From: Thermoanaerobaculia bacterium
GTDB taxonomy: Bacteria; Acidobacteriota; Thermoanaerobaculia; UBA5066; Gp7-AA6
Length of the DNA: 64,000 nt
Assembly: GCA_035263845.1 (NCBI GenBank)
Contig: DATFQY010000222.1
Location: 3,304 to 67,303, forward strand
Direction of reading: 5' to 3'
The notes under the pieces were generated by a model. That model was given only the letters and a program-made list of their open reading frames with translations, did no database searches and had not been told where the DNA came from. Positions 1,975 to 57,707 of the stretch are shown here, in pieces (the stretch's first letter is position 1; each line of letters begins with the position of its first letter). Made by a program: the position numbers and the translations under genes.

Positions 1975-3321
1975 ATGAGCCGTCTCCTCGTCGAGGGAGC
2001 AACCCTGCTCGGACTGACGAGGAGGGACGACATCCGGCCAGCCACGGATCTCTTCGCTGCGAACGGCGTGATCCGCGCGGCCGGCGAGGACGCGGGGCGG
2101 CTCGCCCGCGAAGGCCGGGGGGAGGCGGTCCGCCTCGACGCCCGCGGCAAGTGGCTCCTGCCCGGGTTCGTCCAGTCGCACTTGCATCTGTGCCAGACGC
2201 TCCTTCGAAACGGGCCGGACGACCTGGAGCTTCTGCCGTGGCTGCGCACTCACGTCTGGCCGGGGGAGGCGGCCCACGACGCCACCACGATGTCGGTCTC
2301 GGCGCGGCTCGGGCTCTCGGAGTCGCTCGCCTCGGGCGTGACGGCGGTCCTGGACATGGGGACCGTGAAGCACTCCGAATCGCTCTTCCAGGCCGCCGCG
2401 CGCTCGGGGGTCCGCTACCGCGGCGGCAACGTCCTGATGGACGATCCGCAGACGACGCCCGAGAACCTTCGGGCCTCCGCCCGCGAAGGGCTCGCCGAGA
2501 CGGAGCGGCTCCGCGCGGCCTTCGACGGAGGGGAAGATGGCCGGCTCGGCGTGGCGGTCCAGCCTCGCTTCGCGGTCAGCTGCACCGACGGGCTGCTCCG
2601 GCAGGCGGCCGAGTACGCCGCGGCCAACGGCCTCGTGATTCACACGCACGCGTCGGAGAACCGCGGCGAGATCGATCTCGTCCGGCGGCGCACGGGAAAG
2701 GACAACGTCGAGTACCTCGACGACACCGGTCTTCTGACGGAGAGGACCTGCCTCGCGCACGCCGTGCACACGGGGGCGGAGGACTGGATGCGGCTTTCCG
2801 GGCGGCGGTCGAGCGTGGCCCACTGCCCGTCTTCCAACATGCGGCTGGCGTCCGGGATCGCGCCGGTCCGGGACCTGGCGCGCGCCGGGGTCAACGTCGC
2901 CCTCGGTTCGGACGGCGCGGCCTGCAACAACTCGCTCGATCCGTTCCGCGAGATGCGGCGGGCCGGCGACCTGGCCCAGGCGCGCGCGCCGTCCGAGAGG
3001 ATCCAGGCGTTCGAGCTGCTCCGGATGGCGACGTGGAACGGGGCGCGCGCTCTGCACCTCGGCGGTCCGGAGGGGCTCGTCCCAGGGGGGCGGGCGGATT
3101 TCGTCCTGCTCGACCCCGAGGCGGGGTGGTCGCTGCCCGACGAGTGGTCCGCGGAGCCTTACGGCGCGATCGTGCACTCGATGGGGCCGGCGAATGTCTT
3201 CGCGACGGTCGTCGCCGGCGTCATTCGTTACCGCGCGGGCGATCCGTCGGTCGGCGGATTGAAGCCCGAGCCGCACGAAGTGCGCGACGCGGTTCGAGCG
3301 TTGAGGTCCCGGATGGGCTAG
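1975..3321 (+). CDS. Amidohydrolase-family deaminase (MtaD/SAH-deaminase/guanine-deaminase-like)
   Basis: It has the metal-binding HxH motif (QSHLHL) and HTHASEN and DGAACNNSLD motifs typical of amidohydrolase_1 deaminases. Confidence 0.8.
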   Translation: MSRLLVEGATLLGLTRRDDIRPATDLFAANGVIRAAGEDAGRLAREGRGEAVRLDARGKWLLPGFVQSHLHLCQTLLRNGPDDLELLPWLRTHVWPGEAAHDATTMSVSARLGLSESLASGVTAVLDMGTVKHSESLFQAAARSGVRYRGGNVLMDDPQTTPENLRASAREGLAETERLRAAFDGGEDGRLGVAVQPRFAVSCTDGLLRQAAEYAAANGLVIHTHASENRGEIDLVRRRTGKDNVEYLDDTGLLTERTCLAHAVHTGAEDWMRLSGRRSSVAHCPSSNMRLASGIAPVRDLARAGVNVALGSDGAACNNSLDPFREMRRAGDLAQARAPSERIQAFELLRMATWNGARALHLGGPEGLVPGGRADFVLLDPEAGWSLPDEWSAEPYGAIVHSMGPANVFATVVAGVIRYRAGDPSVGGLKPEPHEVRDAVRALRSRMG

Positions 3322-7643: not shown

Positions 7644-9551
7644 CTAGAAGGAGATGGCCACGCCGCCCATGAGGCGGTTGGTCGTCGGGGCGTCGTCTCC
7701 GGACTGGGAGGCGCTGCGGGCGCGCTCCACGGCCAGGAGGAGCTTGCAGACCGAGCCGAAGGGGTTGATGCCCATCACCGAGAGGTCCTGGGCGAGCGAG
7801 ACGGCAAACTTGTGGGAATCGTTGGAGTGCGGCGTCGTCGCGGTCGCCAGCGTTTGCCTGACCTCGCGCACAAGGATCGCGATCCCCGTTCCCGTCGGGA
7901 CGACGTCCACGGCCGCGCGGGCGGACCAGTAGCGTCCGGTGTTGTCCACGATGCCGTAGCTCATGGCCGATTCCGGAGTCGGCTCCCCGGCGATCGAGCC
8001 GTACCGAAGCGAAACCGTTCCCGAAAGGGTGTCGGTGAGCCGGCGGCTGCCCGCGAGCTTGTACTGCCGGACGGTATTTCCGTCGAAGAGGTAGATGCTG
8101 TCGAAGTCGGTCAGGAAGTCGCCCTCGAAGAACGCCCGCACCGCTTCGCTGACTTTCTGGTCGGAGGCTTCCACCTTGATCGACATGTCGGGGCCGGCCT
8201 TCTTCTCGAAGCCGACCGTCACGCCGCGCGCCGACGTGGCCTCGCCGTTGTCGTCCACCGACGTGATGAGCGGGAGCACCGTGCCCGAGCCCGTCCCGGA
8301 ATCCACGACGCGATAGAGGCCTCGGACGTAAACGTAGGTCTTCGACCCCAGGTCGTAGCGCGCTCCCAGCGTCGGCGCGATTCCGTAGCCGCCCGCCAGG
8401 TAGCGCCCGACCACGCCTCCGTCGATCTCCGCGCGTTCGGAAACCTTTAGCGAGGTCCCGGCGGAGAGTTCGCCGTCGGGAGCGGACATCAGGAACGCGC
8501 CGTCGGCCCCGACCGCGGACGGTCCGACCAATCCTTCGCGATGCCGGTAGGTCATCGAGACCGAGACGCCGGGAGTGTCCGTGGCTGCCCGCGCGTAGTT
8601 CGCGCGGACCTCCAGGGTCCGCGATGCGATCGGAAAGAGATTCGAGCCGGCCGACGTCGCCCGGTAGAGGTTCGTCTCGTCGATGTAGCGGGCCGCGACG
8701 GACTCGACGTTGCCTTCCTCGGAGCCGCGCGACCAGGCGACTCCGTGCGCCTGCATGCTCGCAACCCGGTCGTCGTGGAGGTTCAGGGTGTGCTTCCTCG
8801 TCGTTAGGCTGATCTGGTCATCGTCGGACGGCGCGACCTCGAGGGCCAGGCCGGCCGCGTTGCCGGTCGTGGCCGATGTGTCGTAGATCCCGGCTGGATC
8901 CGAGACCGCCGAATAGTCGCCGTGCAGGTCGTACCGCCAGCCATTGGGCAGGCCTCCATGCACGCCGACCGCGGTCCGGGAGAGCGTCGAGTCGCCCTGC
9001 GGCATCCCCGTGACGGTGCGCACTTCGCCCGCCATGGTCTTGTCCAGCCGGACGTGGTCGAGCGCCGGAGCGGCGGCTTGATCGGCGGCGGCCTCGATCG
9101 AGAGCTCTCTCAGGACGTCGGCGGGGACCTTCTCGCGAAGCTCCCAGACGCTCGCCGTGGGGTCGTTGGAGCTGGCCTTCTCGTTTCGGGCGGCGAGTTG
9201 GATCCGTACGGCGCTGATGCCCTCGGACGGCGCCTGGTGCCAGAGCCGCACCAGCGCCGGGACGAACCCCTTCTTGTAGGCCACGAGGTCGTAAACGCCC
9301 ACGGGCGCCGACGCCAGGACGAACGTCCCGTCCGTGGCCGTCCGCGAGCGCGAGAGCGACGTATCGCCGAGGTTGTAGAGGATGACCAGCGCGCCGGAGA
9401 TGGGCTTCTCCAGGTGGCTGACGATGCCCGAGATCGGCGGGGCCACGGGGGAGGCGAGGACGGGCGACGCGGTCGGCGCGGCAAGAGCCCAGCCGCCGGA
9501 GAGAAACGCCGGCAAAAGGAAAGCCAACGCGGCAGCGGGGCGACGTCTCAT
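7644..9551 (-). CDS. Outer-membrane beta-barrel protein with an N-terminal carboxypeptidase-regulatory-like domain (TonB-dependent-receptor-like)
   Basis: The signal peptide is MRRRPAAALAFLLPAFLSGGWALA. A CarbopepD_reg-like region follows (GIVSHLEKPISGALVILYNLGDTSLSRSRTATDGTFVL). The protein is long and rich in Gly/Tyr beta-strands and ends in a C-terminal aromatic residue (...GGVAISF), as outer-membrane proteins do. The start at 9551 was chosen at the signal peptide. Confidence 0.75.
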   Translation of the reverse strand: MRRRPAAALAFLLPAFLSGGWALAAPTASPVLASPVAPPISGIVSHLEKPISGALVILYNLGDTSLSRSRTATDGTFVLASAPVGVYDLVAYKKGFVPALVRLWHQAPSEGISAVRIQLAARNEKASSNDPTASVWELREKVPADVLRELSIEAAADQAAAPALDHVRLDKTMAGEVRTVTGMPQGDSTLSRTAVGVHGGLPNGWRYDLHGDYSAVSDPAGIYDTSATTGNAAGLALEVAPSDDDQISLTTRKHTLNLHDDRVASMQAHGVAWSRGSEEGNVESVAARYIDETNLYRATSAGSNLFPIASRTLEVRANYARAATDTPGVSVSMTYRHREGLVGPSAVGADGAFLMSAPDGELSAGTSLKVSERAEIDGGVVGRYLAGGYGIAPTLGARYDLGSKTYVYVRGLYRVVDSGTGSGTVLPLITSVDDNGEATSARGVTVGFEKKAGPDMSIKVEASDQKVSEAVRAFFEGDFLTDFDSIYLFDGNTVRQYKLAGSRRLTDTLSGTVSLRYGSIAGEPTPESAMSYGIVDNTGRYWSARAAVDVVPTGTGIAILVREVRQTLATATTPHSNDSHKFAVSLAQDLSVMGINPFGSVCKLLLAVERARSASQSGDDAPTTNRLMGGVAISF

Positions 9552-14129: not shown

Positions 14130-15218
14130 TCAATTGCGGGTGGCCATCTCCTGGACCAGGCGCATCGCGCGGTCCGCGGTCATGGTGTCGGAGAGCTGGA
14201 TCGTGCGCACGCTCGACCACGCCTTGCCGTCGAAGCGGGTGTAGCCGATCGCCGTGCCCGTGTTCCACGCCAGCGTCGGCCGGTAGGCGAAGCCGATCAG
14301 CGTCTTCACGTCGCCGATGACGATCGGGCCGACGTCGCCGATGGGATTGTCCGAGGCCACGCCGACGACCGGGATCCGGCGCCGCATCCACGTCGCGTTG
14401 TCCGGACCGGGACGGCCGAGTTCGGTAGGGAAGGAAACGCGGATGACGTAGTGGCGTCCCGCGGAGAGGTCCGCGAAGCTCGCCAGCAGCGACCCGCTCA
14501 TGCCGTCGACCTGCAGGGCCGGGAACATGTACGCTCCCGTCGAGCGCCCGGCCGTCGGAGTCGACCCGCCGCTCCCGATCAACGCCGGCAGGTCGTACAC
14601 CTGGACGTCGCCCGGGTCCTGGTCGTCGTCGAGGAAGATCGGCGCGTAGCGGGCCTGCGCGTACTGCGCCTCCTCCCACCAGATCACGGAAAGCAGCGTC
14701 CGGGTCTTCGTGATCGCGTTTCCGCTCGGGTCCACCATGTTGACCGAGAGGTGCGAGAGGAGCATCTGCGGGTTGTACGCGTGGGCCATCCCGAGATTGG
14801 GAAGGAGGTTGCCCACCGACCAGGTGCCGTTGCGGTAGACGCCGAGCCGCAGGACGTTCAGGACCGTCAGCTCCTCGTTCCAGAGGAGGACGAGAGAGTC
14901 CGACGGCTCGTCGTACGCGATGTCGAGGTTGTGCTTGACGTCGGCGTTGACCGTGCCCGGAATGATGCCGGCCTGGATCTGCCCGTCCTGGCTGCGCGAG
15001 GTCCACTCGATCAGCTTGTCCGATGGCCCGAGGTTTCCGCCGACGACGCCTAGGTCCGTCGCGGAGCCCGAGCGGATCACGTAGAGCGTGCCGTCCGGCG
15101 AGAGGATCGACTTCTCCTCGTAGGCCGGCGCCGGCGCGTTCGTTTCGGCCGCGAGCGGACCGGCCGCGAGCGCGAGGAGCGCGGCGGCGGCGAGCGGGCG
15201 GAGGAAGCGCGCGATCAT
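14130..15218 (-). CDS. Secreted hypothetical protein
   Basis: It has the signal peptide MIARFLRPLAAAALLALAAGPLAAE. It is one long ORF with no recognisable domain. It is co-oriented with the downstream TPR and XRE genes. Confidence 0.7.
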   Translation of the reverse strand: MIARFLRPLAAAALLALAAGPLAAETNAPAPAYEEKSILSPDGTLYVIRSGSATDLGVVGGNLGPSDKLIEWTSRSQDGQIQAGIIPGTVNADVKHNLDIAYDEPSDSLVLLWNEELTVLNVLRLGVYRNGTWSVGNLLPNLGMAHAYNPQMLLSHLSVNMVDPSGNAITKTRTLLSVIWWEEAQYAQARYAPIFLDDDQDPGDVQVYDLPALIGSGGSTPTAGRSTGAYMFPALQVDGMSGSLLASFADLSAGRHYVIRVSFPTELGRPGPDNATWMRRRIPVVGVASDNPIGDVGPIVIGDVKTLIGFAYRPTLAWNTGTAIGYTRFDGKAWSSVRTIQLSDTMTADRAMRLVQEMATRN

Positions 15219-19270: not shown

Positions 19271-19430
19271 AAGATGGCCGCAAACCACGGAGGTGCATGA
19301 ACTCCCGGTTAACTCCAATCTTGAAATCAGGTTCTGAAAAACGAGAAAAATGGGAGGTGATGGGATCGCGCGGAGGAAGGAACTCAAGCGTGTTTTTTTC
19401 GCAGTTAACAGTAACGAGGAGATCTCAATA

Positions 19431-20975
19431 ATGAAGAAAACCTTCCTGACGTGTATGGCGGTGGTCGCCGTGCTCGCGATTGCGAGCAGCGCCGGCGCCA
19501 TCACGTGCACCATTGACCAGCGTCCCGCTGCGACGCTGCTCATTCCCTACTTCCAGGCGACGTTCAACGCGGACGGCACCATCCAGGGAACGGGCACGAG
19601 CGCTCTGGACACCCTCGTGACGATCGGCAACGCCTCGGCCGCGCCGATGCTCGCTCACGTCAACGTGTTCAACGAGCGGACCGAGCTCGTCCTCGACTTC
19701 AACATCGCGCTCACCGGCTTCGACATTCAGTCGTTCTCGGTGGCCTCGGTGCTGAGGGGGAACCTGCCGATCACGCCGGTGAACATCAACCACCAGCCCG
19801 AGGTCAAGGACGGCATTCAGGTGACGATCACCGGTGACGTCTGCCAGCGCAACTCGAGCGCGCCGGTCTATCCGTCCGCCGGAGGTTACCTGCGTGTGAG
19901 ACCGACGAGCCCGGCAACGGGTCTCGACAACACACTCGCAACGGTTTCCTATCCCGCCGGGCCGTTCCCGACCGCGTTCCTGTTCTCGGTCCTCGACTCG
20001 CTCGATGCGACCAAGGACACCACGACGTGCGGCGGCACCGACGGCGTCATCACCAACCCGATTCACGGCTACATCACGATCGACCACGCGAACTACTGCA
20101 ACCTCTCCAACCCGTCGGATCCGGCGTACTACACGAACGATGCGATCGGTATGGAGAACAACCTGTTCGGTGACTACATCTACACCTCCGGCGCCGGCGT
20201 CGGCACGGAAGGGTACGCGGCCGTCGCCATCGAGGCGGATGCCTCCCTGGCCGACACCACCGCCGTCCCGACCAACCCCGCCAGCACGGCTCCTGTCGGA
20301 CGCCGCACCTTCTATCGTCGCTACGTGACGGTTGCGGATCCGCTGGGCTGCCTCAACACGTTCCCGGCTCCGCAGTCCGGCTTTGACTGCGGCGGCGGCG
20401 ACCAGCGCGAGCCCCTGGGCCTCAAGTACGCGGCCCGTTGGTTCGATGCGTCGCCTGGCGTTACTTCCAACTTCTACGTGTGGCGTGGATCGGCCGGCTC
20501 CTCCGCGATCAGCGGCGGTCTGGCTGACCTGCTCGGCTTCGCAGTCGGCAAGTGCAACACGTCCGAGCCGACCGTGACCTTGACCTTCTTCGATGAAGAC
20601 GAGAACACGGTTACGCAGGGCGTCTGCCCGTCCCCGTGCTCGCAGCCGACGTTCAACTTCCCGTTGGAGACGCAGCGCACCAACATCTCGGCCTTCTCCC
20701 ACCCCGTGTGGCCGGCCGGCTGGGTGAGCATGTCGTTCTTCAACAACACCGGTCCGCTCGGCGGCAACCTGGATCAGGCGTGGGTTGACTACGAGATCCT
20801 GGGCGCCACCGCGTTCCTCGTTGCCGGAATCCCGGCGGCTCAGCTCGATCCGACGAACTGCCAGCCGCTCGGCGTCTCCTGCACCACGGGTACCGGTTGC
20901 TACGGTCCGACCTCCGGCTCCGGCGTGACGGTCTCTCTGCCCGCCATCCCGGTGATCGTCGGGACCGGCCCATAG
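19431..20975 (+). CDS. Secreted Cys-rich hypothetical protein (514 aa)
   Basis: It has an ATG after AACGAGGAG and the signal peptide MKKTFLTCMAVVAVLAIASSAGA. It carries many Cys residues and no domain I can name. A strong terminator follows. Confidence 0.8.
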   Translation: MKKTFLTCMAVVAVLAIASSAGAITCTIDQRPAATLLIPYFQATFNADGTIQGTGTSALDTLVTIGNASAAPMLAHVNVFNERTELVLDFNIALTGFDIQSFSVASVLRGNLPITPVNINHQPEVKDGIQVTITGDVCQRNSSAPVYPSAGGYLRVRPTSPATGLDNTLATVSYPAGPFPTAFLFSVLDSLDATKDTTTCGGTDGVITNPIHGYITIDHANYCNLSNPSDPAYYTNDAIGMENNLFGDYIYTSGAGVGTEGYAAVAIEADASLADTTAVPTNPASTAPVGRRTFYRRYVTVADPLGCLNTFPAPQSGFDCGGGDQREPLGLKYAARWFDASPGVTSNFYVWRGSAGSSAISGGLADLLGFAVGKCNTSEPTVTLTFFDEDENTVTQGVCPSPCSQPTFNFPLETQRTNISAFSHPVWPAGWVSMSFFNNTGPLGGNLDQAWVDYEILGATAFLVAGIPAAQLDPTNCQPLGVSCTTGTGCYGPTSGSGVTVSLPAIPVIVGTGP

Positions 20976-41785: not shown

Positions 41786-41841
41786 GGACGGCCGGGCGGG
41801 ACTTCTCCCGTAACATTCTCTGTTTGGGGGGTACCAGGAGC

Positions 41842-44430
41842 ATGACGGGCGTCGGAGCGGAGGAGCGCGCCAGGCGCGCGGGGTCGCTGCGGGGCTGGTT
41901 CTACGCCGTCGGGCTGATCGGCCTGGCCATCGCCGTTGCGTCCATCGCGGACATGTTCTCGGCGCGGCCCAACGACGGCATCGTCCCGGTCCCGTACCGC
42001 AGCGGCGGCATCGAGGTCCGCATGGTCGCTCCGGGCGGCGCCGCGGAGAAGGCCGGGATCACCGCGGGCGACTGCATCCTGGGCCTCGCCAACCACCTGG
42101 TCAACTCGATCTCCGACGCCTCGCGCGAGCTGCGCCGCCACCAGATCGGGGAGACCGTCCCGTACCTCGTCCGCCGGGGGCCCTGTGCCTCCCCGGGAAT
42201 GACGGCGGGCGCCGGAGGCGGAGAGCTCCGGACCGTTCCGGTCAAGCTCTCGTCGATCCGGCTCGGGGGGACGACCTACCTCTATGCCGCCGTGCTCGGC
42301 TTCCTCTTCTTCTTCATCGGGTTCTTCGTGTTCGCGCGGCGGCCCGACGACCGCTCCGCCCAGGTCTTCTTCCTGCTGTGCGTCCTCTTCCTGCTCTTCT
42401 TCGTCTGCCGGCTGCGCCCCGCCTCCTACTGGTGGATCGACGTTTTCGTGCAGAACACGGGGACGGTCAGCCTCTTCCTCCTGCCCGCCGTCTTCCTCCA
42501 CTTCTTCCTGATCTTTCCCAGGCCCAAGGTGTTCACCTTCGCCGACCGCGACGAGTGGAGCGACGAGGCGCCGGGCTGGAAGAAGAAGCTCGAGGAGTTC
42601 CTCTCGGCGAGCCCCGCGCTCTTCTACCTGATCTACTCGATTCCGCCGGTCGTCTTCCTCTACGACGTCTTCCGGCAGCTCCAGGGCCGGCGCGTCTCGA
42701 TCCTCTCGGGAGCACCGCTGTCCTCCTGGGTCCTGCTCGGCGACTACCTGATCCTGGGGCTCGCGGCCCTGGCCCACTCGGCGTTCACCCTGCGCGAGCC
42801 CTCCGAGAGGCGGCAGGCCTTCCACGTCCTCGTCGGAACGATCCTCGGCACGACGCCCTTCGTGCTGCTGGGCATCGTCCTGCCGTCGCTCTTCAACAAC
42901 GACGACTACGTCTTCTACGGCATCGTCCCGATGATCCTGATCCCGCTGACGTTCGCCTACGCGATCGTCCGCTTCCAGATGCTCAACATCCGGCTGGTCG
43001 TGCGCCGGACGTTCCTCTACGCCGGGACGACGGCGATCCTCTTCGGCTTCTACATCGCGGCGATCGCAACTGCCAACGCGCTCTTCGCCGAGCGGCTCTC
43101 GGCCTCCCCGATCTTCAATTTCGGCTTTTTCCTCGTGGTCGTGCCGCTCTTCGAACTGCTGCGCCGGCGGCTCCAGACGCCGCTGGACAAGCTCTTCTTC
43201 CGGGAGAAGTTCGACTACCAGGCGGCGCTGCTCGAGATGAGCGAGGCCATCACGGGAGAGCTGGACCTCGGGAAGATCACCGACTACCTGACCGCGAGCG
43301 TGACCGCGACGATGCGACTGGAGCGCGCCTCCGTCTGGCTGCGGGACCGGGACGGGTTCCTCGAGCGGCGGGGAAGGCGAGAGGACCGCCTCTCGCCCGA
43401 CGCCGATCTGCGGCGGGTCCTGCGCCGCGAGGGCAAGCCCGTCGGGCTGGAGGAGCTGTCGCTCTCCTTCGCCGACGAGGAGAGCCAGGCCTTCCGCGAG
43501 CGGCTCTCCGAGGAGGGGTTCAAGCTGGTCGTTCCGCTCGTCTACCGGGAGCGGCTGATGGGGCTCCTGGCGCTGAAAGAAAAGCTCTCGGGCGAGCGGT
43601 TCGACCGCGAGGACCGCTCGCTCCTCTCCACCCTCGCCAACCAGGCCGCCCTCGCCATCGAGACCGCGCTGCTCCACGACGAGATGACCCGGCAGGCGGA
43701 GTTCCGACGCGACCTCGAGATCGCCCGCGACATCCAGTCGAGCCTTCTGCCGCGGTCGGTCCCGATCCTGCCGGGGTTCGAGCTGCTCGGAGGGAGCCTC
43801 CCCGCGCGCATCGTCGGCGGCGACTTCTACGACTTCATCCCGTTCGAGGACCGCTCGCTGGGCGTCGTCATCGGCGACGTCTCGGGCAAGTCGGTCCCCG
43901 CGTCGCTCCTGATGGTCGCCTCCAAGGAGATCGTCTACTCCCGCGCCTTGACGACCCGCGACCCGGGCGTCCTTTTCCAGGAGTCCAACCGGCGCATCTA
44001 CTCGATCAAGAGGCGGATGTTCGTCTCGCTCGGCTACTTCGTCCTGGATCCCGACGCGATGAGCCTGCGGTACGCGATCGGGGGGCAGCCGCTGCCGATC
44101 CTGCTGCGCTCGGGCGACGGGGGGCCCCGGCCGCTCGACCCGCCCGAGCACCGGCTGCCGCTCGGGGCCTTCCGGGAGGTCCCCTACGACACCCGCGAGA
44201 TCTACTTGAAGCGCGGGGACCTGATCTTCTTCTACACGGACGGGTTCTCCGAAGCCATGGACGAATCCATGAATCCGTACGGGGAGGAGCGCCTGATGAA
44301 GTCACTGGCCGCCCGGCAGGGGGAGAGCCTGGAGGACCTGGCCAACGGAATCCTGGCGGACATCCGCAAGCACGTGGGCGGTGCCGAACAGTACGACGAC
44401 ATGACGTTCCTGCTCCTGAAAGTGCAATGA
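41842..44430 (+). CDS. Membrane sensor PP2C (SpoIIE-type) phosphatase: TM-PDZ-multipass membrane module-GAF-PP2C
   Basis: It has an ATG after CCAGGAG. A PDZ-like segment (AEKAGITAGDCILGLANHLV) follows the first TM, and there are at least 8 hydrophobic segments. The membrane module is clearly homologous to that of the histidine kinase at 4707-7472: LHFFLIFPRPK versus LHFFLVFPKS, and IPLTFAYAIVRFQMLNIRLVV versus IPLAFAYAILKWRLWDVEIFV. A GAF domain and PP2C motifs follow (GGDFYDF, GDVSGKSVPASLLM, FYTDGFSEA). The 845 aa ORF on the opposite strand is a shadow. Confidence 0.85.
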   Translation: MTGVGAEERARRAGSLRGWFYAVGLIGLAIAVASIADMFSARPNDGIVPVPYRSGGIEVRMVAPGGAAEKAGITAGDCILGLANHLVNSISDASRELRRHQIGETVPYLVRRGPCASPGMTAGAGGGELRTVPVKLSSIRLGGTTYLYAAVLGFLFFFIGFFVFARRPDDRSAQVFFLLCVLFLLFFVCRLRPASYWWIDVFVQNTGTVSLFLLPAVFLHFFLIFPRPKVFTFADRDEWSDEAPGWKKKLEEFLSASPALFYLIYSIPPVVFLYDVFRQLQGRRVSILSGAPLSSWVLLGDYLILGLAALAHSAFTLREPSERRQAFHVLVGTILGTTPFVLLGIVLPSLFNNDDYVFYGIVPMILIPLTFAYAIVRFQMLNIRLVVRRTFLYAGTTAILFGFYIAAIATANALFAERLSASPIFNFGFFLVVVPLFELLRRRLQTPLDKLFFREKFDYQAALLEMSEAITGELDLGKITDYLTASVTATMRLERASVWLRDRDGFLERRGRREDRLSPDADLRRVLRREGKPVGLEELSLSFADEESQAFRERLSEEGFKLVVPLVYRERLMGLLALKEKLSGERFDREDRSLLSTLANQAALAIETALLHDEMTRQAEFRRDLEIARDIQSSLLPRSVPILPGFELLGGSLPARIVGGDFYDFIPFEDRSLGVVIGDVSGKSVPASLLMVASKEIVYSRALTTRDPGVLFQESNRRIYSIKRRMFVSLGYFVLDPDAMSLRYAIGGQPLPILLRSGDGGPRPLDPPEHRLPLGAFREVPYDTREIYLKRGDLIFFYTDGFSEAMDESMNPYGEERLMKSLAARQGESLEDLANGILADIRKHVGGAEQYDDMTFLLLKVQ

Positions 44431-44514: not shown

Positions 44515-45954
44515 ATGAGCAGGATGGGTATCAAGTCCCGCCGGGCCGTAGCCCTGGTCACGGTCCTTTTCCTGCTCGTGGCGGGCGGGGTGCTGGCCCT
44601 CTACCTGACGTCCACCAGCCGGCGGGAGGTCACGACCTCCTCATCGGCCGCGTACGACGCCTACCGGTCGGGGGTGGATAACTTGCGTCGCTTCTATACG
44701 AAGGAAGCGAGGGTCGACTTCGCGCGAGCCCTCTCGCTGGATCCCAATTTCGCCATGGCGATGCTGCGCCTGGCGGGCCTCTCCAACCAGGACCAGTACA
44801 AGTCCCTGGTTGAGCGCGCTTCGAAGCTCCGCGGCCGCTTGAACGAGAGGGAGCGCCTGTGGGTGGACCTCTACATGACGGGCGAAAAAGGGAGCCGGGA
44901 GGAGAGACTCAAGATCGCCAAGGAGCTTCACGAGAAGTATCCCGACGACATCGACGCGGCGCACTGGCTCGCTGGGGACGAGATGGCCCAGGGCCGGACG
45001 GACGAAGCGATCCGGATCATGATGGGCCTTCTCGCCCAGGACCCCAACATCGCGGACGTCTACAACCAATGCGGCTACTACTACGCCTTCCGCGGGGAAT
45101 ACGAGAAGGCCGTCGAGAACGTCAAGAAGTACCAGTTCATGGCCCCCGACCAGGCCAATCCCTGGGACAGCCTCGGCGAAATCCAGGCCTACATGGGTCA
45201 TTACGACGAGGCGATCGCCAACCTCAACAAGGCTCTCTCGCTGAAGCCCGATTTCTTCGAGTCGCATTACCACCTTGGCGTCGCCTATGAAGGAAAGGGC
45301 CTGCCCGACAAGGCGATCGAGCAATACCTGGCTGCGGCGCAGGAAGCCCTGACCGACGGCAAGAGGATGGACCTTTACGCGTCGGTGATGCGGACCGGGA
45401 TCGTCTCCGAAAATGCGGCCGCCGTCCGCGACGCCGCACGGCGTGTCGCGCAGCTTCCGAAGAACAAGGACTCGGAAGTCTGGAACGCGTTCACGGAATC
45501 CGCCCTGGACCTGGCCGAGGGCCGTCCGGCAGGCGCCGAGAAGCGCCTCGCCGAGCTCCGTCCGCGGCTGCTCGAGCAATTCACGAAAGACAACCGCGAT
45601 CCGGAAAGGAAGCCCTTCTTCCCGGTCTGGAACGGGCTGATGGCGCTGGCGAAGGCCCGTCAGGGCAAGATCGACGAAGCGATCGCGCTCTACGAGCAAA
45701 ACGTCAATCCGCCCAATCGTGCCGACGCCTTCGAGGGCCGGCGCTCCATCTTCGAAGCCAGGGCGCGGCTCGCGGCCCTGCTCGCCAAGAAAGGCGACCT
45801 GGACCGCGCCGAGAAGCTCCTCGCGGAGAACAAGGCGTGGAACCCCAGCTGGGCCCCGACGCGCCCCGCCGAGCTCGTCGTGGAGCAGGCCCGGCGCGAC
45901 AAGGTCCTGGCCGCCGCCGCTGCAGACAACGGAGACCGCAAGGGCGCCCGCTGA
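44515..45954 (+). CDS. Membrane-anchored TPR-repeat protein
   Basis: It has an ATG after GGAGG and an N-terminal TM (AVALVTVLFLLVAGGVLALYL), followed by multiple TPR motifs. Confidence 0.8.
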   Translation: MSRMGIKSRRAVALVTVLFLLVAGGVLALYLTSTSRREVTTSSSAAYDAYRSGVDNLRRFYTKEARVDFARALSLDPNFAMAMLRLAGLSNQDQYKSLVERASKLRGRLNERERLWVDLYMTGEKGSREERLKIAKELHEKYPDDIDAAHWLAGDEMAQGRTDEAIRIMMGLLAQDPNIADVYNQCGYYYAFRGEYEKAVENVKKYQFMAPDQANPWDSLGEIQAYMGHYDEAIANLNKALSLKPDFFESHYHLGVAYEGKGLPDKAIEQYLAAAQEALTDGKRMDLYASVMRTGIVSENAAAVRDAARRVAQLPKNKDSEVWNAFTESALDLAEGRPAGAEKRLAELRPRLLEQFTKDNRDPERKPFFPVWNGLMALAKARQGKIDEAIALYEQNVNPPNRADAFEGRRSIFEARARLAALLAKKGDLDRAEKLLAENKAWNPSWAPTRPAELVVEQARRDKVLAAAAADNGDRKGAR

Positions 45955-47457: not shown

Positions 47458-47580
47458 GTCGCAGTATCGAAAAGTCACGCTTTCTTATATAAGCATCTAA
47501 TAAAAAAGGAGTTATCTATTCATTGTCGTTCCTGACATTCGGAAAGTGTATCTTAATGGCACTATAATGACAAACCGTGC
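47458..47580. other. About 120-bp AT-rich island (about 35% GC in a roughly 70% GC background) containing AAAAAAGGAG and a TATAAT box
   Basis: It was read from the sequence. It lies between the sigma-54 activator gene and the partner-switching operon. Confidence 0.5.
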
Positions 47581-47885
47581 TCGCATCCCGAATTCGCGGC
47601 AAGCCCTTCTATTGCAAGCGCTTGCTCTCCTCGACCGTCCCGGCCGGGACGTGGCAGAGGGCTTGCCTTTCCCCTGCTCGAGCGAACATGAAAAGAACGC
47701 AGGCAGCCACCTTCGAATCGGCTTCGGCCCGCATCTCCGCCGCCGCGCGGCGGGAGCGGTCGGAGACTCGCGGACTGGCCTGGGCCCTGCTCGCCGCGGA
47801 AATCGGCGCCGTGTTCGCACTCTTCTCCTCGGGCCTGGTCCCGGCGACCGTCGTCCGCGCGCTCCAGGTCTTCCTGCGTTTTTAG
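47577..47885 (+). CDS. Possible small protein (102 aa) with a C-terminal hydrophobic helix, perhaps translated leaderlessly from a GTG 8 nt after a TATAAT box
   Basis: The ORF is MLASRIRGKPFYCKRLL...GLAWALLAAEIGAVFALFSSGLVPATVV.... It has no Shine-Dalgarno sequence. Its GC3 is lower than that of neighbouring genes, so the coding status is uncertain. Confidence 0.3.
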   Translation: MLASRIRGKPFYCKRLLSSTVPAGTWQRACLSPARANMKRTQAATFESASARISAAARRERSETRGLAWALLAAEIGAVFALFSSGLVPATVVRALQVFLRF

Positions 47886-48042: not shown

Positions 48043-48504
48043 ATGTCTGGGCGAGAATCGGCCCGGATGAGCGTGGACTCGACGGGCGCGCGGGAGATCT
48101 CCCTGACGATCCCGGTCGCCCCGGACATGGAGATCGTCGCGACCGCGCAGGCGGCGGCGCTGGGCGAGTTCATCGAGATGGCCCACGATAAGATCGACGA
48201 GGTCAAGCTCGCTCTCGTGGAGGCCTGCATCAACGCCTTTGAGCACGCTCACGCTCGGGACGACCGGCTGCACCTGACGTTTCGCGTCGGCCGGGAAGAC
48301 GAGCGCGACTACCTCGAGGTCGAGGTGCTGGACCGCGGGACGGGCTTCGACCAGGCCTCCGTCGAGCCGCCCTCGGCGGAGAAGACGTTCCAGGGCCGGC
48401 AGAAGCGGGGCTGGGGCCTTCAGATCATGCGGAGCCTGATGGATTCGGTGGACATTTCGTCGGGGCAGGGAGGGACGCGGATCCTCATGAGGAAGTACAA
48501 GTGA
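48043..48504 (+). CDS. Anti-sigma-factor-type serine protein kinase (RsbW/SpoIIAB-like, GHKL ATPase)
   Basis: It has HATPase_c motifs (EACINAFEHAH...EVEVLDRGTGFD...GWGLQIM) and an ATG after GGAGG. Confidence 0.85.
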   Translation: MSGRESARMSVDSTGAREISLTIPVAPDMEIVATAQAAALGEFIEMAHDKIDEVKLALVEACINAFEHAHARDDRLHLTFRVGREDERDYLEVEVLDRGTGFDQASVEPPSAEKTFQGRQKRGWGLQIMRSLMDSVDISSGQGGTRILMRKYK

Positions 48505-48854
48505 GCGAGGTCTGCAGGGTCGCCGCGGAGCGGCGCGGAGACGTGGCCGTCCTTTCGACGGACGGCTACATCAACAACCAGGGGGGCGAGGAAATCGCGC
48601 GCCAGGCGTACGCGCAGCTGGAATCCGGCGCGCGGGCGCTGGTCCTGAACCTGGAGAAGACGCGCATCGTCAACTCGATCGGCATCTCGATCCTGATCGA
48701 GGTCCTCGAGAAGGTCATGGACCGCAAGGGGCAGCTCGCCTTCTGCTGCCTGACGCCGACGATCGACAAGACGTTTCGGATCATGGGACTGGCCCAGTAC
48801 GCGTCGATCTACCCGACCGAAGCGGAAGCCGTTCGGGCCGTCGCGGCGGCGTGA
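48501..48854 (+). CDS. STAS-domain anti-sigma-factor antagonist (RsbV/SpoIIAA-like)
   Basis: It has a STAS fold signature with a conserved phosphorylatable Ser in 'RIVNSIGISILIEV'. Its GTG start overlaps the upstream stop. Confidence 0.85.
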   Translation: MSEVCRVAAERRGDVAVLSTDGYINNQGGEEIARQAYAQLESGARALVLNLEKTRIVNSIGISILIEVLEKVMDRKGQLAFCCLTPTIDKTFRIMGLAQYASIYPTEAEAVRAVAAA

Positions 48855-50491
48855 CCGAGTCGCCTTCCACTCCCGCCGCCTCCCGTCTCGCGGGTCTCTG
48901 GAAGGCGCTCGAGGAGCCGCTGGCGGGCTCCGATCTTCCCCTTCCCGCCCGGCTGGCGGCGGCGGCGCTGCGATGCAGCGGGGCGCGTCGCGCGGCGATC
49001 TACCTGCCGGAGAAAGAAAGCTGGGTCCGCTCCGCCGTCTCCGGGGACGGCGGCGAGGACGAGCTGCCCGAATCGCTCGACCCTGAGGAACGCCGCACGG
49101 AGCTCGTCCTTGTGCCGCTGACGGCCGAGGGTGAGGTCCACGGCCAGCTCGCCCTGGAGGGTTTGCCCGGCGGCGACGGCGGCGGGATCGCTCCGGTCCT
49201 CGGAGTCCTGCTGGGCGGGCTGCTGGCCGCGCACCGCTACAGCCGGCAGGTCAAGGAAGCGGACTTCGAGGTCCGCACGCGGCTGGTCGAGCTCGAGTCC
49301 CTCTACGACCTGGGCCTCTCGCTCGGCGGACAGCTCGAGGTTTCCGCTCTCGCCGACGAGGTGCTCTTCCGCTCGATCTCGCTGACGGACGCGGGCAAGG
49401 GGACCCTCGTCCTCTTCCACGAGGACGGCCGGCTTCTTCTCGAGCGGAGCCTCGGCGAGCAGCTGCTGCCGGCCGAGCTCTTCGCGACGTGGGAGCTTCC
49501 CGAGGGCGATGCCGTCATCAACAACGCCGCCGCCTCCGTTCCGACGGCCGGGGTTCGGCTGGCCTCCTGCGTGAAGTGCCTCGCCGTGCCGATCTCCGTC
49601 GGCGGGCGGCGGCTGGGCGTGCTCGCGGTCGCCGACAAGGAGTCGAGGGACGGCAGCGTCCTCGACTTCACTCCGGCCGACGCGCGGCTGCTCTCCCTCT
49701 TCGCCAACCAGGCCGCGGCGGCGATCGAGACGGCGCGGCTGCACCGCGCGGCGATCGAGAAGGAGAGGATCGAGCGGGAGCTGGAGCTGGCCGCCGCGAT
49801 CCAGCGGGAGATCCTTCCGAGGTCCCTGCCGGAGGTCGCGGGCGTGGAGCTCGCGGCGGCGAGCCTTCCCACGCGGCAGGTCGGCGGCGACTACTACGAC
49901 CTCTTTCCATTGTCGCGGGGACGGCTCGGGTTCCTCGTCGCGGACGTTTCCGGAAAGGGGATCCCGGCGGCTCTGCTCGTGTCCACGGTCCACGCCGCGG
50001 TGCACCTGCAGATCGACGAGGCGAAGACCGTGGTCGAGCTCGTGGAGCGCATCGACCGGCATCTGCGGCGCTACGCCGCGACCCGCAAGTTCCTCACGCT
50101 CTTCTTCGGCCTGATCGAGCCCTCGGAGGGAAGGCTGACCTACGTGTCGGCCGGCCACAACCCCGCGCTCTTGATCCGCGGGGCCGGGAGAATCGAGACG
50201 CTCGGCTCGACGGGCGTGCCCGTCGGCATGTTCCCTGACGCCGCTTGGAAGGAGGTCACCGTCGCGCTCTCCGCCGGCGACCTTCTCTGCGTCTTCACGG
50301 ACGGGCTGACGGAGGCCGTCAACACCCGCGAGGAGGAGTTCGGGCTCGACCGCCTCTCCGCGGTCGTCGCGGCGGGCCTGCGAAAGCCGCTGCCCGAGGT
50401 CGCGGACCGGGTGTTCGCGGACGTCGCGGACTTCGCGCGAGAGATGCCGCAGTACGACGACCAGACGCTGCTCCTCGTGCGCCGGGCGTGA
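48851..50491 (+). CDS. GAF-GAF-PP2C (SpoIIE-type) phosphatase, RsbU/RsbP-like
   Basis: It has two GAF-like regions followed by PP2C motifs (GGDYYDLF, ADVSGKGIPAALLVSTVHA, FTDGLTEA, QYDDQTLLLV). Its GTG start overlaps the upstream stop. Confidence 0.85.
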   Translation: MTESPSTPAASRLAGLWKALEEPLAGSDLPLPARLAAAALRCSGARRAAIYLPEKESWVRSAVSGDGGEDELPESLDPEERRTELVLVPLTAEGEVHGQLALEGLPGGDGGGIAPVLGVLLGGLLAAHRYSRQVKEADFEVRTRLVELESLYDLGLSLGGQLEVSALADEVLFRSISLTDAGKGTLVLFHEDGRLLLERSLGEQLLPAELFATWELPEGDAVINNAAASVPTAGVRLASCVKCLAVPISVGGRRLGVLAVADKESRDGSVLDFTPADARLLSLFANQAAAAIETARLHRAAIEKERIERELELAAAIQREILPRSLPEVAGVELAAASLPTRQVGGDYYDLFPLSRGRLGFLVADVSGKGIPAALLVSTVHAAVHLQIDEAKTVVELVERIDRHLRRYAATRKFLTLFFGLIEPSEGRLTYVSAGHNPALLIRGAGRIETLGSTGVPVGMFPDAAWKEVTVALSAGDLLCVFTDGLTEAVNTREEEFGLDRLSAVVAAGLRKPLPEVADRVFADVADFAREMPQYDDQTLLLVRRA

Positions 50492-54277: not shown

Positions 54278-54355
54278 TGGTGGAGCTGACCGGGATCGAA
54301 CCGGCGACCTCCTGAGTGCGATTCAGGCGCTCTCCCAAAACTGAGCTACAGCCCC
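54278..54355 (-). tRNA. tRNA-Ala (anticodon CGC)
   Basis: The reverse complement folds as a cloverleaf: GGGGCUG-UA-GCUC-AGUUUUGGGA-GAGC-G-CCUGA-AUCGCAC-UCAGG-AGGUC-GCCGG-UUCGAUC-CCGGU-CAGCUCC-A-CCA. It has the G3:U70 identity pair of tRNA-Ala and an encoded CCA. It is very similar to E. coli tRNA-Ala. Confidence 0.9.
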
Positions 54356-54381: not shown

Positions 54382-55638
54382 TCAGCGCCGTTTCAGGAAG
54401 TCGGAGAGGGGCATTCCCAGCAGGGCCCGCCGCTCGCCCTGGAGGCGCGCGAATAGGGGCTCGAGGATCTCGACCACCTGGTCTTCCTCGTCGGGAGTGA
54501 TCGAGAAGAGGTCGGGGGAGAGCGCGTCCACCACCTGCGCGACCGTGATCCGGCGGGCCGGCCGCGTCAGGGCAAACCCCTTGGCCGGGTCCCCGGTGAT
54601 GAGGCCCGCCTTCTCGAGCTTTCCCAGGATTTTCTCGGCCTCGAGGGAGTTCTCCTCCTGCTGCGTGTAGAGCTCGCGCAGGTCGTGGGTCCCGCCCCGC
54701 GCGAGCTGCAGGAGCATTCGGATCGCGTTCTCTGCAGCGCCCGCGCGCGGACCGCCGATCCGGCGGCGGCCGACCGCGTGGACCTGGAGGACATGGACGA
54801 GCTCCACGCCCATGAGGATCAGGACCCAGACGAAGTACACCGAGAGCAGCATCAGGAGGATCAGCGTCAGCGAGCCGGTGATCAGGTTGACCTTCGAGAG
54901 GGCCCGGACGTAGAGGCCGAAGAGAAACCGCAGCAGCTCCAGCAGCACCGCGACGCACGCTCCGCCGGCCGCCGCCCGCGTCCACTTTACGGGCGCGTTG
55001 GGCAGCATCTTGTAGAGCAGCGTGAGCGCGGCGAACTCGATCAGCATGGGGAAGAAGAAGTCCGTGGCCGGGGCCGAGAGGATCTCGTTGGCCATCGTGA
55101 AGCGCTTGACGAACCGGACGCCCAGCGCGATCGAGCCGATCAGGAGGGCCAGCGCCCCGAGGCTGGCCGTGTAGAGGAGCAGGCGCGGGACGAGCCGGCG
55201 GCGCCGGGGAGCTCCCCAGACCGTGTTGACGATGCCTTCGATGATGAACAGGAGCCGCAGCGACGCGACGAAGAGCAGGAGCAGGCCGATGCCGGTGATC
55301 GTGCTCGACTCGTGGATGAAGTCCCGCAGGCTCTCGGTGACCTGGGCGCTGTGGTACGGGAGAATCACGTTGACGAGGTCGAAGATCGTGGCCACGTTCT
55401 GCTTGAAGAACGTCGCCAGGAAGAGGGCAAAGGTCGCCAGCAGCGGGACCGCCGTCAGCAGCGTCGTGAACGCGAGCGAGGCGGCGAGGTCCTCGCCTCG
55501 GTCGGCGCGGAAGCCGTGGTAGGTCTCCAGCACCGCTGCGGAGATCGTCTGGAAGAGCGCGCGGGCCCCTCTCGGACGGTGCTCCGCGGTCCGCGAATCC
55601 GCTTGCTCGCGGCGCGCCGGAGAAGGAGACCTCTCCAC
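54382..55638 (-). CDS. YihY/BrkB-family inner-membrane protein
   Basis: It has 6 TM segments. The N-terminal motif LAASLAFTTLLTAVPLL is typical of the family. It has a GTG start. Confidence 0.8.
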   Translation of the reverse strand: MERSPSPARREQADSRTAEHRPRGARALFQTISAAVLETYHGFRADRGEDLAASLAFTTLLTAVPLLATFALFLATFFKQNVATIFDLVNVILPYHSAQVTESLRDFIHESSTITGIGLLLLFVASLRLLFIIEGIVNTVWGAPRRRRLVPRLLLYTASLGALALLIGSIALGVRFVKRFTMANEILSAPATDFFFPMLIEFAALTLLYKMLPNAPVKWTRAAAGGACVAVLLELLRFLFGLYVRALSKVNLITGSLTLILLMLLSVYFVWVLILMGVELVHVLQVHAVGRRRIGGPRAGAAENAIRMLLQLARGGTHDLRELYTQQEENSLEAEKILGKLEKAGLITGDPAKGFALTRPARRITVAQVVDALSPDLFSITPDEEDQVVEILEPLFARLQGERRALLGMPLSDFLKRR

Positions 55639-55973: not shown

Positions 55974-56311
55974 CCCCGACGGTCCGGGTCGCTTTCGTCA
56001 TCCAATCCCCCTTAGGGAGACCCCGCCTTCCCCGGCTTGACGTCTGTTGAGGCTGGCAAGAGTTCAGCTCCTCGTGTCGCGTCGCTGAAGCCCCGGCGGC
56101 GGTGGAGCCTCCCGCGGCGGCCATGAGCGAAGGAGCGCACCGCGGAGCTTCTGGAGCCACGCTGCGAATGCGACTGAGCGACGAGCGGCGGCCCGGAACT
56201 CCAGTTCGCGGCCGGGCCGACGCGTGCCGACGAGGGAGGCGCAACCGACGCCGGGGCGGATGTTACGAATGAATCTGGAATCGGGAAACGGCGGCGGGAC
56301 ATAATCCAAGC

Positions 56312-57436
56312 GTGAGTTACAAGAAGGCGGGCTATCCCGCGCTCTCGACGTTCGCGTCGAGTGCGGGTTGAGCCTGCAAGATCGGTCAGTTCGACCTCTC
56401 AGCGCTTCTCTCGAAGCTTCCGTCTCCGGCGGACCCGGCGCTGCTGGTGGGCAACGCCCAGGCCGACGACGCGGCCGTGTACCGCATCGGCGGCGGTAAG
56501 GTCCTCGTCCAGACGGTGGATTTCTTCACGCCGGTCGTGGACGATCCGTACCTCTTCGGCCAGATCGCGGCGGCCAACGCGCTCTCCGACGTCTACGCGA
56601 TGGGAGCGAAGCCGGTCCTCGCGCTGGCCCTCGCCGCGTTTCCGACGACGGTCCTGCCGCCCGAGGTCTTCGAGGAGATCCTTCGCGGCGGGGTCGAGAA
56701 GGTCGCCGAGGCGGGCGCGGTCGTCGGGGGAGGGCACTCCATCGACCACGACATCCCTCTCTACGGGCTCTCGGTGACCGGGCTGGCCGATGAGGCGCGG
56801 ATCACGCGCAACGCCGGGGCGCGTCCCGGCGACGCGCTGGTCTTGACCAAGCCGCTCGGGATCGGCGTGACCGTCTGCGCGGGGCGCGCCGACACGATCG
56901 CCGGAGAGGGAGCGGCCCGCTTCTTCCACAGAAACCTCCTGACCGACGGCGAGATGGAATCCGCCGTCCAGGCGATGACGATGCTCAACCGCGCCGCGGC
57001 CGAGGCGATGGAAGGCTTCGAAGTCCACGCCGCGACCGACGTGACCGGGTACGGCCTCCTCGGCCATGCCCACGAGATGATGGAAGCGTCCGCCGTGACG
57101 GGGGAGTTCGGCGTCGAAAAGATCCCGCTTCTGCCCGCGGCTCGGCGGCTCGCCGCGAAGGGGATCGCGCCGGACGGCTCGCGGGTCAACGTCCGCAGCA
57201 TGAAGCCGAGGGTCGAGGCGGGGCCAGGCGTGAGCGAAGAGGATTTCCTGCTTCTCTGCGACGCGCAGACTTCCGGGGGATTGCTGGTCGCGCTGCCGTC
57301 TTCCTCGGCGCAGAGTTACGCGGACCGGTGCCGCGAGCGCGGGGCCGCTTGCGCGGCGGTCGTCGGACGGGTCGTCGAGCGGGGGAACACGGCGCTTCGC
57401 GTGGTGAAAGGGGGGACTGGTGGCGAAAGAGGATGA
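56312..57436 (+). CDS. selD: Selenide, water dikinase (selenophosphate synthetase) with an in-frame UGA (56369-56371), predicted to encode selenocysteine
   Basis: The ORF track begins at 56447. Reading upstream in the same frame gives VSYKKAGYPALSTFASSAG-[TGA]-ACKIGQFDLSALLSKLPSPADPALLVGNAQADDAAVY. This aligns with the SelD N-terminus (…HGAG-C-GCKISPKVLETIL…DPNLLVGNETRDDAAVY), and the TGA falls exactly at the catalytic Cys/Sec position. The rest of the protein is clearly SelD (FTPVVDDPYLFGQIAAANALSDVYAMGAKP...). A GTG start at 56312 is proposed. Confidence 0.7.
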
Positions 57437-57707
57437 CGAGGCGGAGTGGGTCGAGGTCGCGTCCACCGGCCAGGATGAAGAGGCTTCCCTGATCGCCGGC
57501 CTCCTCGAGTCCGAGGAGATCCCCGTCGAGATCGAGGGCCCCACGGGCGGGTCGCCGTGGCCCGAGAACCTCGGGGCGTTCGGCGTCAGCCGCGTGCTCG
57601 TTCCGCCGGAGCGGGCGGCCGACGCGCGCGCGGTGCTCGAACGGCGCGAGCGGGAGTTCCAGAGCGAGGCGCCGGAGGTTTCCCCCGAGGACGACGCCGC
57701 GGAATGA
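57420..57707 (+). CDS. Small acidic protein, DUF2007-like (putative signal-transducing protein)
   Basis: The 95 aa protein is Glu/Asp-rich. Its start overlaps the end of selD and its stop overlaps the kinase ATG (ATGA). Confidence 0.55.
   Translation: MAKEDDEAEWVEVASTGQDEEASLIAGLLESEEIPVEIEGPTGGSPWPENLGAFGVSRVLVPPERAADARAVLERREREFQSEAPEVSPEDDAAE

Follow-up and report, generated by a model that had tools for sequence, protein, structure and literature searches.

A selD gene with an in-frame UGA at its catalytic codon in a Thermoanaerobaculia bacterium: a predicted selenocysteine-containing SelD called too short

Does the selD gene of this Thermoanaerobaculia bacterium (Acidobacteriota) begin where gene callers place it, or does it reach further upstream, across an in-frame UGA that would be decoded as selenocysteine (Sec)? 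The question is raised by one locus in a stretch of 64,000 nucleotides (nt), hereafter the window (GenBank assembly GCA_035263845.1, contig DATFQY010000222.1, positions 3,304 to 67,303 of the forward strand), and all coordinates given without a further label are positions in it. SelD is a selenide, water dikinase, also termed selenophosphate synthetase, and the enzyme encoded here would make selenophosphate from selenide and ATP. Translation of selD starts at GTG 56312, 45 codons upstream of the called start, and the product is very probably a Sec-containing SelD whose UGA is read through with the help of a bacterial Sec insertion sequence (bSECIS). By this mechanism translation would begin at GTG 56312, the UGA would be decoded as Sec within the catalytic N-terminal loop, and insertion would be supplied by SelB, SelA and tRNA-Sec; the selenophosphate made would be the selenium donor also for the Sec residue of SelD itself. 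Sec-type SelD genes that are called too short are familiar from bacteria, and there is no novelty in this; the gene is a member of a known family in a new lineage.

Reading frame and family identity of selD

The open reading frame (ORF) listed for selD runs from 56447 to 57436, begins with GTG and encodes 329 amino acids (aa). A TGA at 56369-56371 lies 78 nt, or 26 codons, before this GTG; that the two share a frame had been claimed by an earlier reading of the letters by a model (the sequence-only reading) and is correct. Upstream of the TGA the frame stays open back to a stop codon, TGA 56270-56272. The sequence-only reading had let the gene extend from 56272, which is the last base of that stop and no start. 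The sole in-frame start between the stop and the UGA is GTG 56312, 19 codons before the UGA, which thereby becomes codon 20; started there, selD encodes 374 aa and ends with the stop codon at 57434-57436. The restored N-terminus reads MSYKKAGYPALSTFASSAG-[UGA]-ACKIGQFDLSALLSKLPSPADPALLVGN, with ACKIGQFDLSALL as the residues directly 3' of the UGA, and the read-through peptide across the predicted Sec residue contains AGYPALSTFASSAG-U-ACK. Gene callers drop the first 45 codons because the in-frame UGA sits at the catalytic residue.

For profile scoring with hidden Markov models (HMMs) the UGA was replaced by Cys. On the NCBIfam equivalog TIGR00476, whose cut-off is 125 bits, the extended protein reaches 373.8 bits and covers profile positions 2-309 of 311, against 336.4 bits and positions 41-309 for the called 329-aa ORF, so that the extension recovers profile positions 2-40. 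With NF002098 the extended protein lies above the cut-off of 299 bits (325.9 bits), and the called ORF falls below it (295.6 bits). The Pfam domains AIRS (PF00586, 91.7 bits) and AIRS_C (PF02769, 74.0 bits) are both found in the extended protein. Its best match among solved structures is Escherichia coli SelD, 3u0o (phmmer, E = 5.5e-66), query residues 11-362 being aligned with chain residues 8-343; the second is SelD of Aquifex aeolicus, 2yye, with the loop SSGCAAKVG. The UGA position pairs with Cys17 of the E. coli enzyme (S-A-G-U-A-C-K against G-A-G-C-G-C-K), and the blocks DDAAVY, xTxDFF, NAxSDxxAMG and TDVTG are all present and aligned with both the E. coli and the A. aeolicus proteins. 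In the alignment to E. coli SelD they are conserved as DDAAV, VDFF, SDVYAMG and TDVTG. These acidic blocks form the ATP/metal site of SelD. The sequence-only reading had proposed that upstream extension restores the catalytic loop, that the UGA falls at the catalytic Cys/Sec position (GAGCGCK in E. coli), and that 23 residues separate it from LLVGN, as compared with 24 in E. coli; the gain in profile coverage and the alignment to 3u0o, which gives the same residue count, agree with it on all three points.

Codon 20 and the start codon among relatives

A protein search was made over 5.8 billion sequences, and the best 120 matches were analysed. Those that carry a name come from metagenome-assembled genomes of Thermoanaerobaculia or Acidobacteriota. 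The 120 fall into two classes. Full-length proteins (59, with 359-374 aa) read YPALSTFASSAG-C-ACKIGQFDLSALL, to which the read-through translation flanking the UGA in the window is identical, with U for C, and the upstream in-frame peptide is a nearly residue-for-residue match to the N-terminus of these Cys-type relatives. The remaining 61 (303-343 aa) possess no catalytic loop, and 53 of them begin at the VGN or MGN codon that corresponds to 56447; this class includes the closest relatives, 76-99% identical to the window protein. All 61 are shortened gene calls, drawn from ENA, JGI, NCBI and Logan, so every TGA-type gene call in this set is truncated.

The DNA of relatives was taken as one genome per GTDB species, giving 74 Thermoanaerobaculia or Acidobacteriota sequences including the window. 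At the codon in question 37 of these have TGA and 37 have TGC or TGT. A scan of JGI metagenomes added 78 contigs, 55 with TGA and 23 with TGC. In total, 92 loci carry TGA (the window, 36 other species representatives and 55 contigs) and 60 carry TGC or TGT; they are termed Sec forms and Cys forms below. The flanks of the TGA in species representatives are invariably LSTFASSAG_ACKIGQFDLSALL. Over the 30 nt before the TGA, the 37 Sec-form genomes vary at 9 of 10 third codon positions and at only 1 of 20 first and second positions. Variation confined almost solely to third codon positions is what purifying selection on a translated peptide leaves behind.

The start codon is conserved as well. It lies 18-20 codons before the UGA or Cys codon in 91 Sec-form and 57 of 60 Cys-form relatives, and full-length Cys-type proteins in the databases start at the position of GTG 56312. 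Ahead of the start stands a -10-like box: [T/C]ATAAT is found 6 nt, sometimes 7, before the GTG in 80 of 87 Sec forms and 24 of 57 Cys forms, and the other Cys forms have no exact copy, several of those shown carrying TAGAAT. Boxes of the form [TC]ANAAT number only 12 on both strands of the 64-kb window. Among the aligned selD relatives nothing is conserved upstream of the box, and there is no Shine-Dalgarno sequence; a consensus promoter scan upstream of selD gave no full -35/-10 pair. The box lies 6 nt before GTG 56312 and gives independent support for that codon as the start. This arrangement suggests a leaderless, GUG-initiated selD transcript, and if the message is leaderless, the UGA lies only 57 nt from its 5' end. 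At one other place in the window, 47577-47885 (+), a TATAAT is followed after 8 nt by the start codon of an ORF of 102 codons with high GC content at third codon positions (GC3), which may be a second leaderless small gene.

These data bear on two readings in which no UGA is decoded. Gene callers might be right, selD starting at GTG 56447 and encoding a 329-aa SelD without the loop, with the upstream part a leader or a separate ORF of 19 codons. It speaks for this that no other start codon intervenes between the TGA and GTG 56447, that the 329-aa product still scores well above the TIGR00476 cut-off, and that public gene calls all use this start or one nearby. We nevertheless consider it very improbable, as the 45 dropped codons encode, in frame, a conserved catalytic loop nearly identical to that of full-length Cys-type relatives, the substitutions upstream of the TGA fall almost only at third codon positions, the start and its -10-like box 19 codons before the TGA are conserved in Sec and Cys forms alike, and GTG 56447, rather than being a conserved initiation site, encodes the Val in the conserved motif LLVGN. 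The TGA might also be a sequencing or assembly error, an origin possible in principle for any lone in-frame stop of a metagenomic contig, or an inactivating mutation in a pseudogene. The TGA is shared by two assemblies that are independent of each other and come from nearly the same strain, ENA k141_3218304 (L001, 98.5% identical) and JGI Ga0126379_10005025 (L083, 99.8% identical). Error and pseudogene are excluded, leaving a chance that we regard as practically nil. The TGA moreover recurs, far beyond chance, in 36 other genomes at species level and in 54 more metagenome contigs, with purifying selection on both of its flanks.

In practical terms the case matters to annotation. For genes like this one, being cut short at the UGA is a standard failure of annotation, and dedicated repair tools exist (PMC12013277). 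Two database entries illustrate it here. The 329-aa truncated product is recorded in ENA for the L001 copy, and in an NCBI-named SelD (P0060, matching locus L007) the call opens 4 codons past the UGA, apparently with ATA.

RNA elements around the UGA and the Sec machinery

RNAalifold places a single stem-loop from the G of the UGA to position +39, counted from the UGA, which corresponds to 38 nt in the window and has a minimum free energy (MFE) of -12.1 kcal/mol. Its apex is the hairpin GGUC-AGUUC-GACC, which the sequence-only reading had noticed as beginning 13 nt after the UGA and had called weak. The hairpin is indeed present, its first base being the 13th nt after the UGA; it is the apex of a longer element that fits the bSECIS criteria and is under synonymous constraint specific to Sec forms. 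The bSECIS consensus asks for an apical loop of 3-9 nt, an upper stem of 4-16 base pairs (bp), a spacing of 16-37 nt between UGA and loop, a G at loop position 1 or 2 with, as a rule, G or U as the next base, and an MFE of at most -7.5 kcal/mol (PMC13188914). The selD element has a 5-nt loop, a 4-bp stem, a spacing of 16 nt and the MFE given above. When every TGA in the window was scanned for coding flanks together with such a hairpin, only the selD site was found.

Conservation of the element follows the identity of the codon. The approximately 40 nt after the UGA are nearly invariant in Sec forms, synonymous positions included. GGU-CAG-UUC-GAC is fixed in them, and Cys forms use GGC, GGG, CCG and GAU there. 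At synonymous third positions the mean pairwise identity among Sec forms is 0.906 over codons +1 to +13 and 0.590 over the rest of the first 124 codons, while among Cys forms it is 0.642 over the same codons and 0.619 elsewhere; the two groups are thus equally saturated outside codons +1 to +13 (0.590 against 0.619). Of all 13-codon segments within these 124 codons of Sec forms, none is more constrained than the segment starting from the UGA. The full set of 12 predicted pairs is kept by 95% of 74 distinct Sec-form sequences and by none (0%) of 54 distinct Cys-form sequences; for the apical stem the shares are 100% and 4%, respectively, the apical hairpin being invariant in Sec forms. Within 34 distinct sequences, 99% of pair cells are paired, and 8 of the 12 pairs show no variation. 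Where a paired position does change, mostly C-G becomes U-G or G-U becomes G-C; 4 of the 34 sequences have a broken pair, 12-32 in three of them and 4-37 in one, and the freely varying positions, +6, +15, +30 and +33, are all predicted to be unpaired.

A rough neighbour-joining tree shows Cys clades nested among Sec forms. Two TGC forms, L015 (at 3049-3090 of that locus) and L144, retain an intact GGUCAGUUCGACC hairpin after the TGC, and each looks like a fossil SECIS left by a recent Sec-to-Cys conversion. Conversions of this kind with a remnant SECIS have been described for SelD (PMC1794560), and the pattern in the two loci fits them.

A further hairpin lies 5' of the UGA. The 23-nt segment 56342-56364 that contains it folds at -10.1 kcal/mol, and the 5-bp core of this hairpin survives in 86% of 74 distinct Sec-form sequences, against only 37% of 54 distinct Cys-form sequences; synonymous constraint at codons -8 to -3 is likewise seen in Sec forms only. 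To our knowledge, no role has been described for a 5' hairpin in bacterial Sec insertion. It is conceivable, though rather unlikely, that recoding of selD uses this hairpin as a Sec-specific helper beyond the 3' SECIS, on a perhaps leaderless mRNA. Such a helper could slow the first ribosome for the loading of SelB, or could free the SECIS from competing pairings.

Several results weigh against a Sec-containing SelD decoded through this element. No pair of the stem-loop was found changed on both sides, and no compensatory change was detected by RNAalifold or by pair counting among the 34 distinct sequences, because the element is nearly invariant. In folding energy it does not surpass shuffled sequence (z from -0.5 to +0.65), and energy alone therefore provides no evidence for the hairpin. 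No SECIS family of Rfam was matched at the gathering threshold over the whole window or in a permissive scan of 56250-56550, the only match in the scans of this region being a chance snoRNA-like one. The 4-bp stem and the 16-nt spacing stand at the lower limits of the bSECIS ranges. The predicted structure is thus supported by its position, its fit to the consensus and the constraint specific to Sec forms, and not by covariation. As for the machinery, neither Pfam annotation of 30 window ORFs, which gave no SelA, SelB or SelU domains, nor tblastn with E. coli SelA and SelB turned up selA or selB in the window, and ARAGORN found no tRNA-Sec there, the sole tRNA of the window being a tRNA-Ala. 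The search for machinery covered the surroundings of selD only. Across approximately 160 related loci (1.13 Mb, ARAGORN and tblastn) no selA, selB or tRNA-Sec lies beside selD, a Bacillota outgroup (L078) excepted, in which selA next to selD was the only SelA/SelB match. For this organism and its class the Sec machinery is therefore inferred.

The absence of Sec machinery from all the sequence searched, that is, from the selD neighbourhoods, is what would be expected if the UGA were read through without Sec, a near-cognate tRNA inserting Cys, Trp or another residue with the aid of the hairpins in a genome that has no SelB. We know of no bacterial precedent for a non-Sec read-through of this kind. 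A parallel exists in insect SPS1, in which a UGA at the same position is read through without Sec with the aid of a stem-loop (PMC4561486). Apart from the machinery, nothing in the window gene points to such a case. The probability of non-Sec read-through is judged to be very small: both the position and the loop sequence of the element agree with the SelB-type bSECIS consensus; Sec decoding with SelA and SelB is documented in several other Acidobacteria, including Koribacter with 11 and Solibacter with 8 selenoproteins (PMC5029168, Tables S1 and S2); and the machinery search was limited to the selD neighbourhood rather than genome-wide. Another Acidobacteriota genome has served as a Sec-utilising test case (PMC12013277). 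Sec-type SelD is, furthermore, described as the second most widespread prokaryotic selenoprotein family (PMC13188914) and as one of the two most widespread in bacteria (PMC1794560, PMC13188914); it is not rare, which corrects the emphasis of the sequence-only reading on its occurrence in a minority of bacteria. Reassignment of UGA in the genetic code was also considered and rejected: TGA ends 31 of the 47 high-GC3 ORFs listed in the window and is thus an ordinary stop here, so the code is not reassigned.

Coordinates, gene surroundings and known systems

The features of the locus are collected in Table 1.

Table 1. Features of the selD locus, in window coordinates
Feature	Coordinates	Strand	Basis
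Full-length selD coding sequence, selenide, water dikinase, predicted Sec at residue 20	56312..57436	+	Profile HMMs; alignment to 3u0o
True start codon GTG	56312..56314	+	Sole in-frame start; position shared with relatives
In-frame UGA, predicted Sec codon, residue 20	56369..56371	+	Aligns with E. coli Cys17; TGA in 91 other loci
AAG codon of Lys23, which matches Lys20 of E. coli SelD in the G-U/C-x-C-K loop	56378..56380	+	Alignment to 3u0o
GTG = Val46 of LLVGN, false start of gene callers	56447..56449	+	ORF list; database homologues
Predicted bacterial SECIS stem-loop, 12 pairs, two-by-two internal loop 56382-56383/56397-56398	56370..56407	+	RNAalifold consensus
Apical hairpin, stem GGUC/GACC, loop AGUUC (56388-56392), G-U at loop positions 2-3	56384..56396	+	Conservation; bSECIS consensus fit
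Hairpin CUCGACG-UUCG-CGUCGAG, 7 bp, UUCG loop, ends 8 nt before UGA	56344..56361	+	Folding; conservation
-10-like box CATAAT, 6 nt before start codon	56300..56305	+	Conservation in relatives
DUF2007 gene, 95 aa, overlaps selD stop by 17 nt	57420..57707	+	Pfam label on the ENA copy (L001)

Downstream of the DUF2007 gene follow a Ser/Thr kinase and gcvT-H-P, as a matter of gene order only. Just upstream of selD, at 54382-55638 (-), lies a gene for a YihY/BrkB-family membrane protein fused to a C-terminal Rrf2-type winged-helix domain. It is adjoined by the tRNA-Ala(CGC) at 54278-54355, and linkage of tRNA-Ala with selD recurs in many related contigs. The window is also, at 284-1951, 41824-44430 and 48043-50491, a dense area of partner-switching and signalling genes: three SpoIIE-type PP2C phosphatases with GAF domains, one of them with an additional FHA and one with an additional PDZ domain, an anti-sigma-type HATPase_c_2 kinase beside a STAS protein, and two sigma-54 activators. 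Neither Pfam nor NCBIfam gives a match at E <= 1e-5 for two long high-GC3 ORFs, which lie at 14130-15218 (-, 362 aa) and 19350-20975 (+, 541 aa).

Other candidates for recoding or for Sec machinery were set aside. A same-frame TGA at 45952-45954, which has the look of a read-through site, separates two distinct genes, encoding a TPR protein (44515-45954) and a GAF/sigma-54 activator starting at GTG 45958. The other in-frame-TGA candidates in the window are antisense GC3 artefacts, and neither the review of in-frame TGAs nor the SECIS-pattern scan found a second selenoprotein candidate there. Outside the window, a 100-nt "tRNA-Gly(GCC)" that ARAGORN reports at 7934-8033 (-) of locus L111, 6 kb from a Sec-type selD, has no tRNA match in Rfam and is probably a false positive, not a tRNA-Sec.

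A Sec-containing SelD in this organism would mark Sec decoding in Thermoanaerobaculia, a widespread uncultured class of soil bacteria; no paper in the searchable literature treats this class together with selenocysteine. From the TGA-type selD it follows that selA, selB, selC and probably other selenoproteins are predicted elsewhere in these genomes. The mixture of TGA with TGC and TGT, together with the putative fossil SECIS elements, offers a clean natural series for the replacement of Sec by Cys in SelD. The understanding of the mechanism of Sec insertion is left unchanged by this case.

Among the closest known systems are the Cys-type SelD proteins of sister Thermoanaerobaculia (for example P0006/L015 and P0007/L018), which are 66-77% identical in the best tblastn segment, share the start and read YPALSTFASSAG-C-ACKIGQFDLSALL; many of their genes also have the same -10-like box. 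Unlike the window gene, sister Cys-type genes carry TGC or TGT, drift freely at synonymous positions after this codon and have a broken apical stem in 96% of cases. SelD of E. coli (3u0o) shares with the window protein the G-x-G-C/U-x-C-K loop, the spacing of LLVGN and DDAAVY to it (24 against 23 residues) and the AIRS and AIRS_C domains, but has Cys at the catalytic position and no SECIS. Native SelD of A. aeolicus and Haemophilus influenzae carries Sec. Both belong to the enzyme family of the window SelD, and the loop of the A. aeolicus crystal construct (PDB 2yye, 2zod and 2zau), SSG-C-AAKVG, puts the Sec position at the same place in the N-terminal Gly-rich loop as the SSAG-U-ACKIG of the window. 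As in the window, a stem-loop follows the UGA within the coding sequence of these two genes; the window gene differs from them in coming from soil Thermoanaerobaculia and in a nearly invariant SECIS sequence that is specific to its clade.

With respect to the RNA, the reference is the SECIS of E. coli fdhF, a stem-loop directly 3' of the UGA that is bound by SelB, acts during translation and has its loop G-U at +23/+24. The element of the window resembles it in starting from the UGA, in its length of approximately 40 nt, in the G-U of the apical loop and in unpaired bases 5' of the upper stem. It differs in an upper stem of only 4 bp, in a loop G-U at +21/+22 and in having no sequence similarity to fdhF, and SelB is its predicted partner. 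SPS1-UGA of Hymenoptera, with its read-through element (HRE), also has a UGA at the homologous SelD/SPS position and an adjacent stem-loop (PMC4561486); it differs from the window gene in being eukaryotic and in being read through without Sec, in genomes that lack the Sec machinery.

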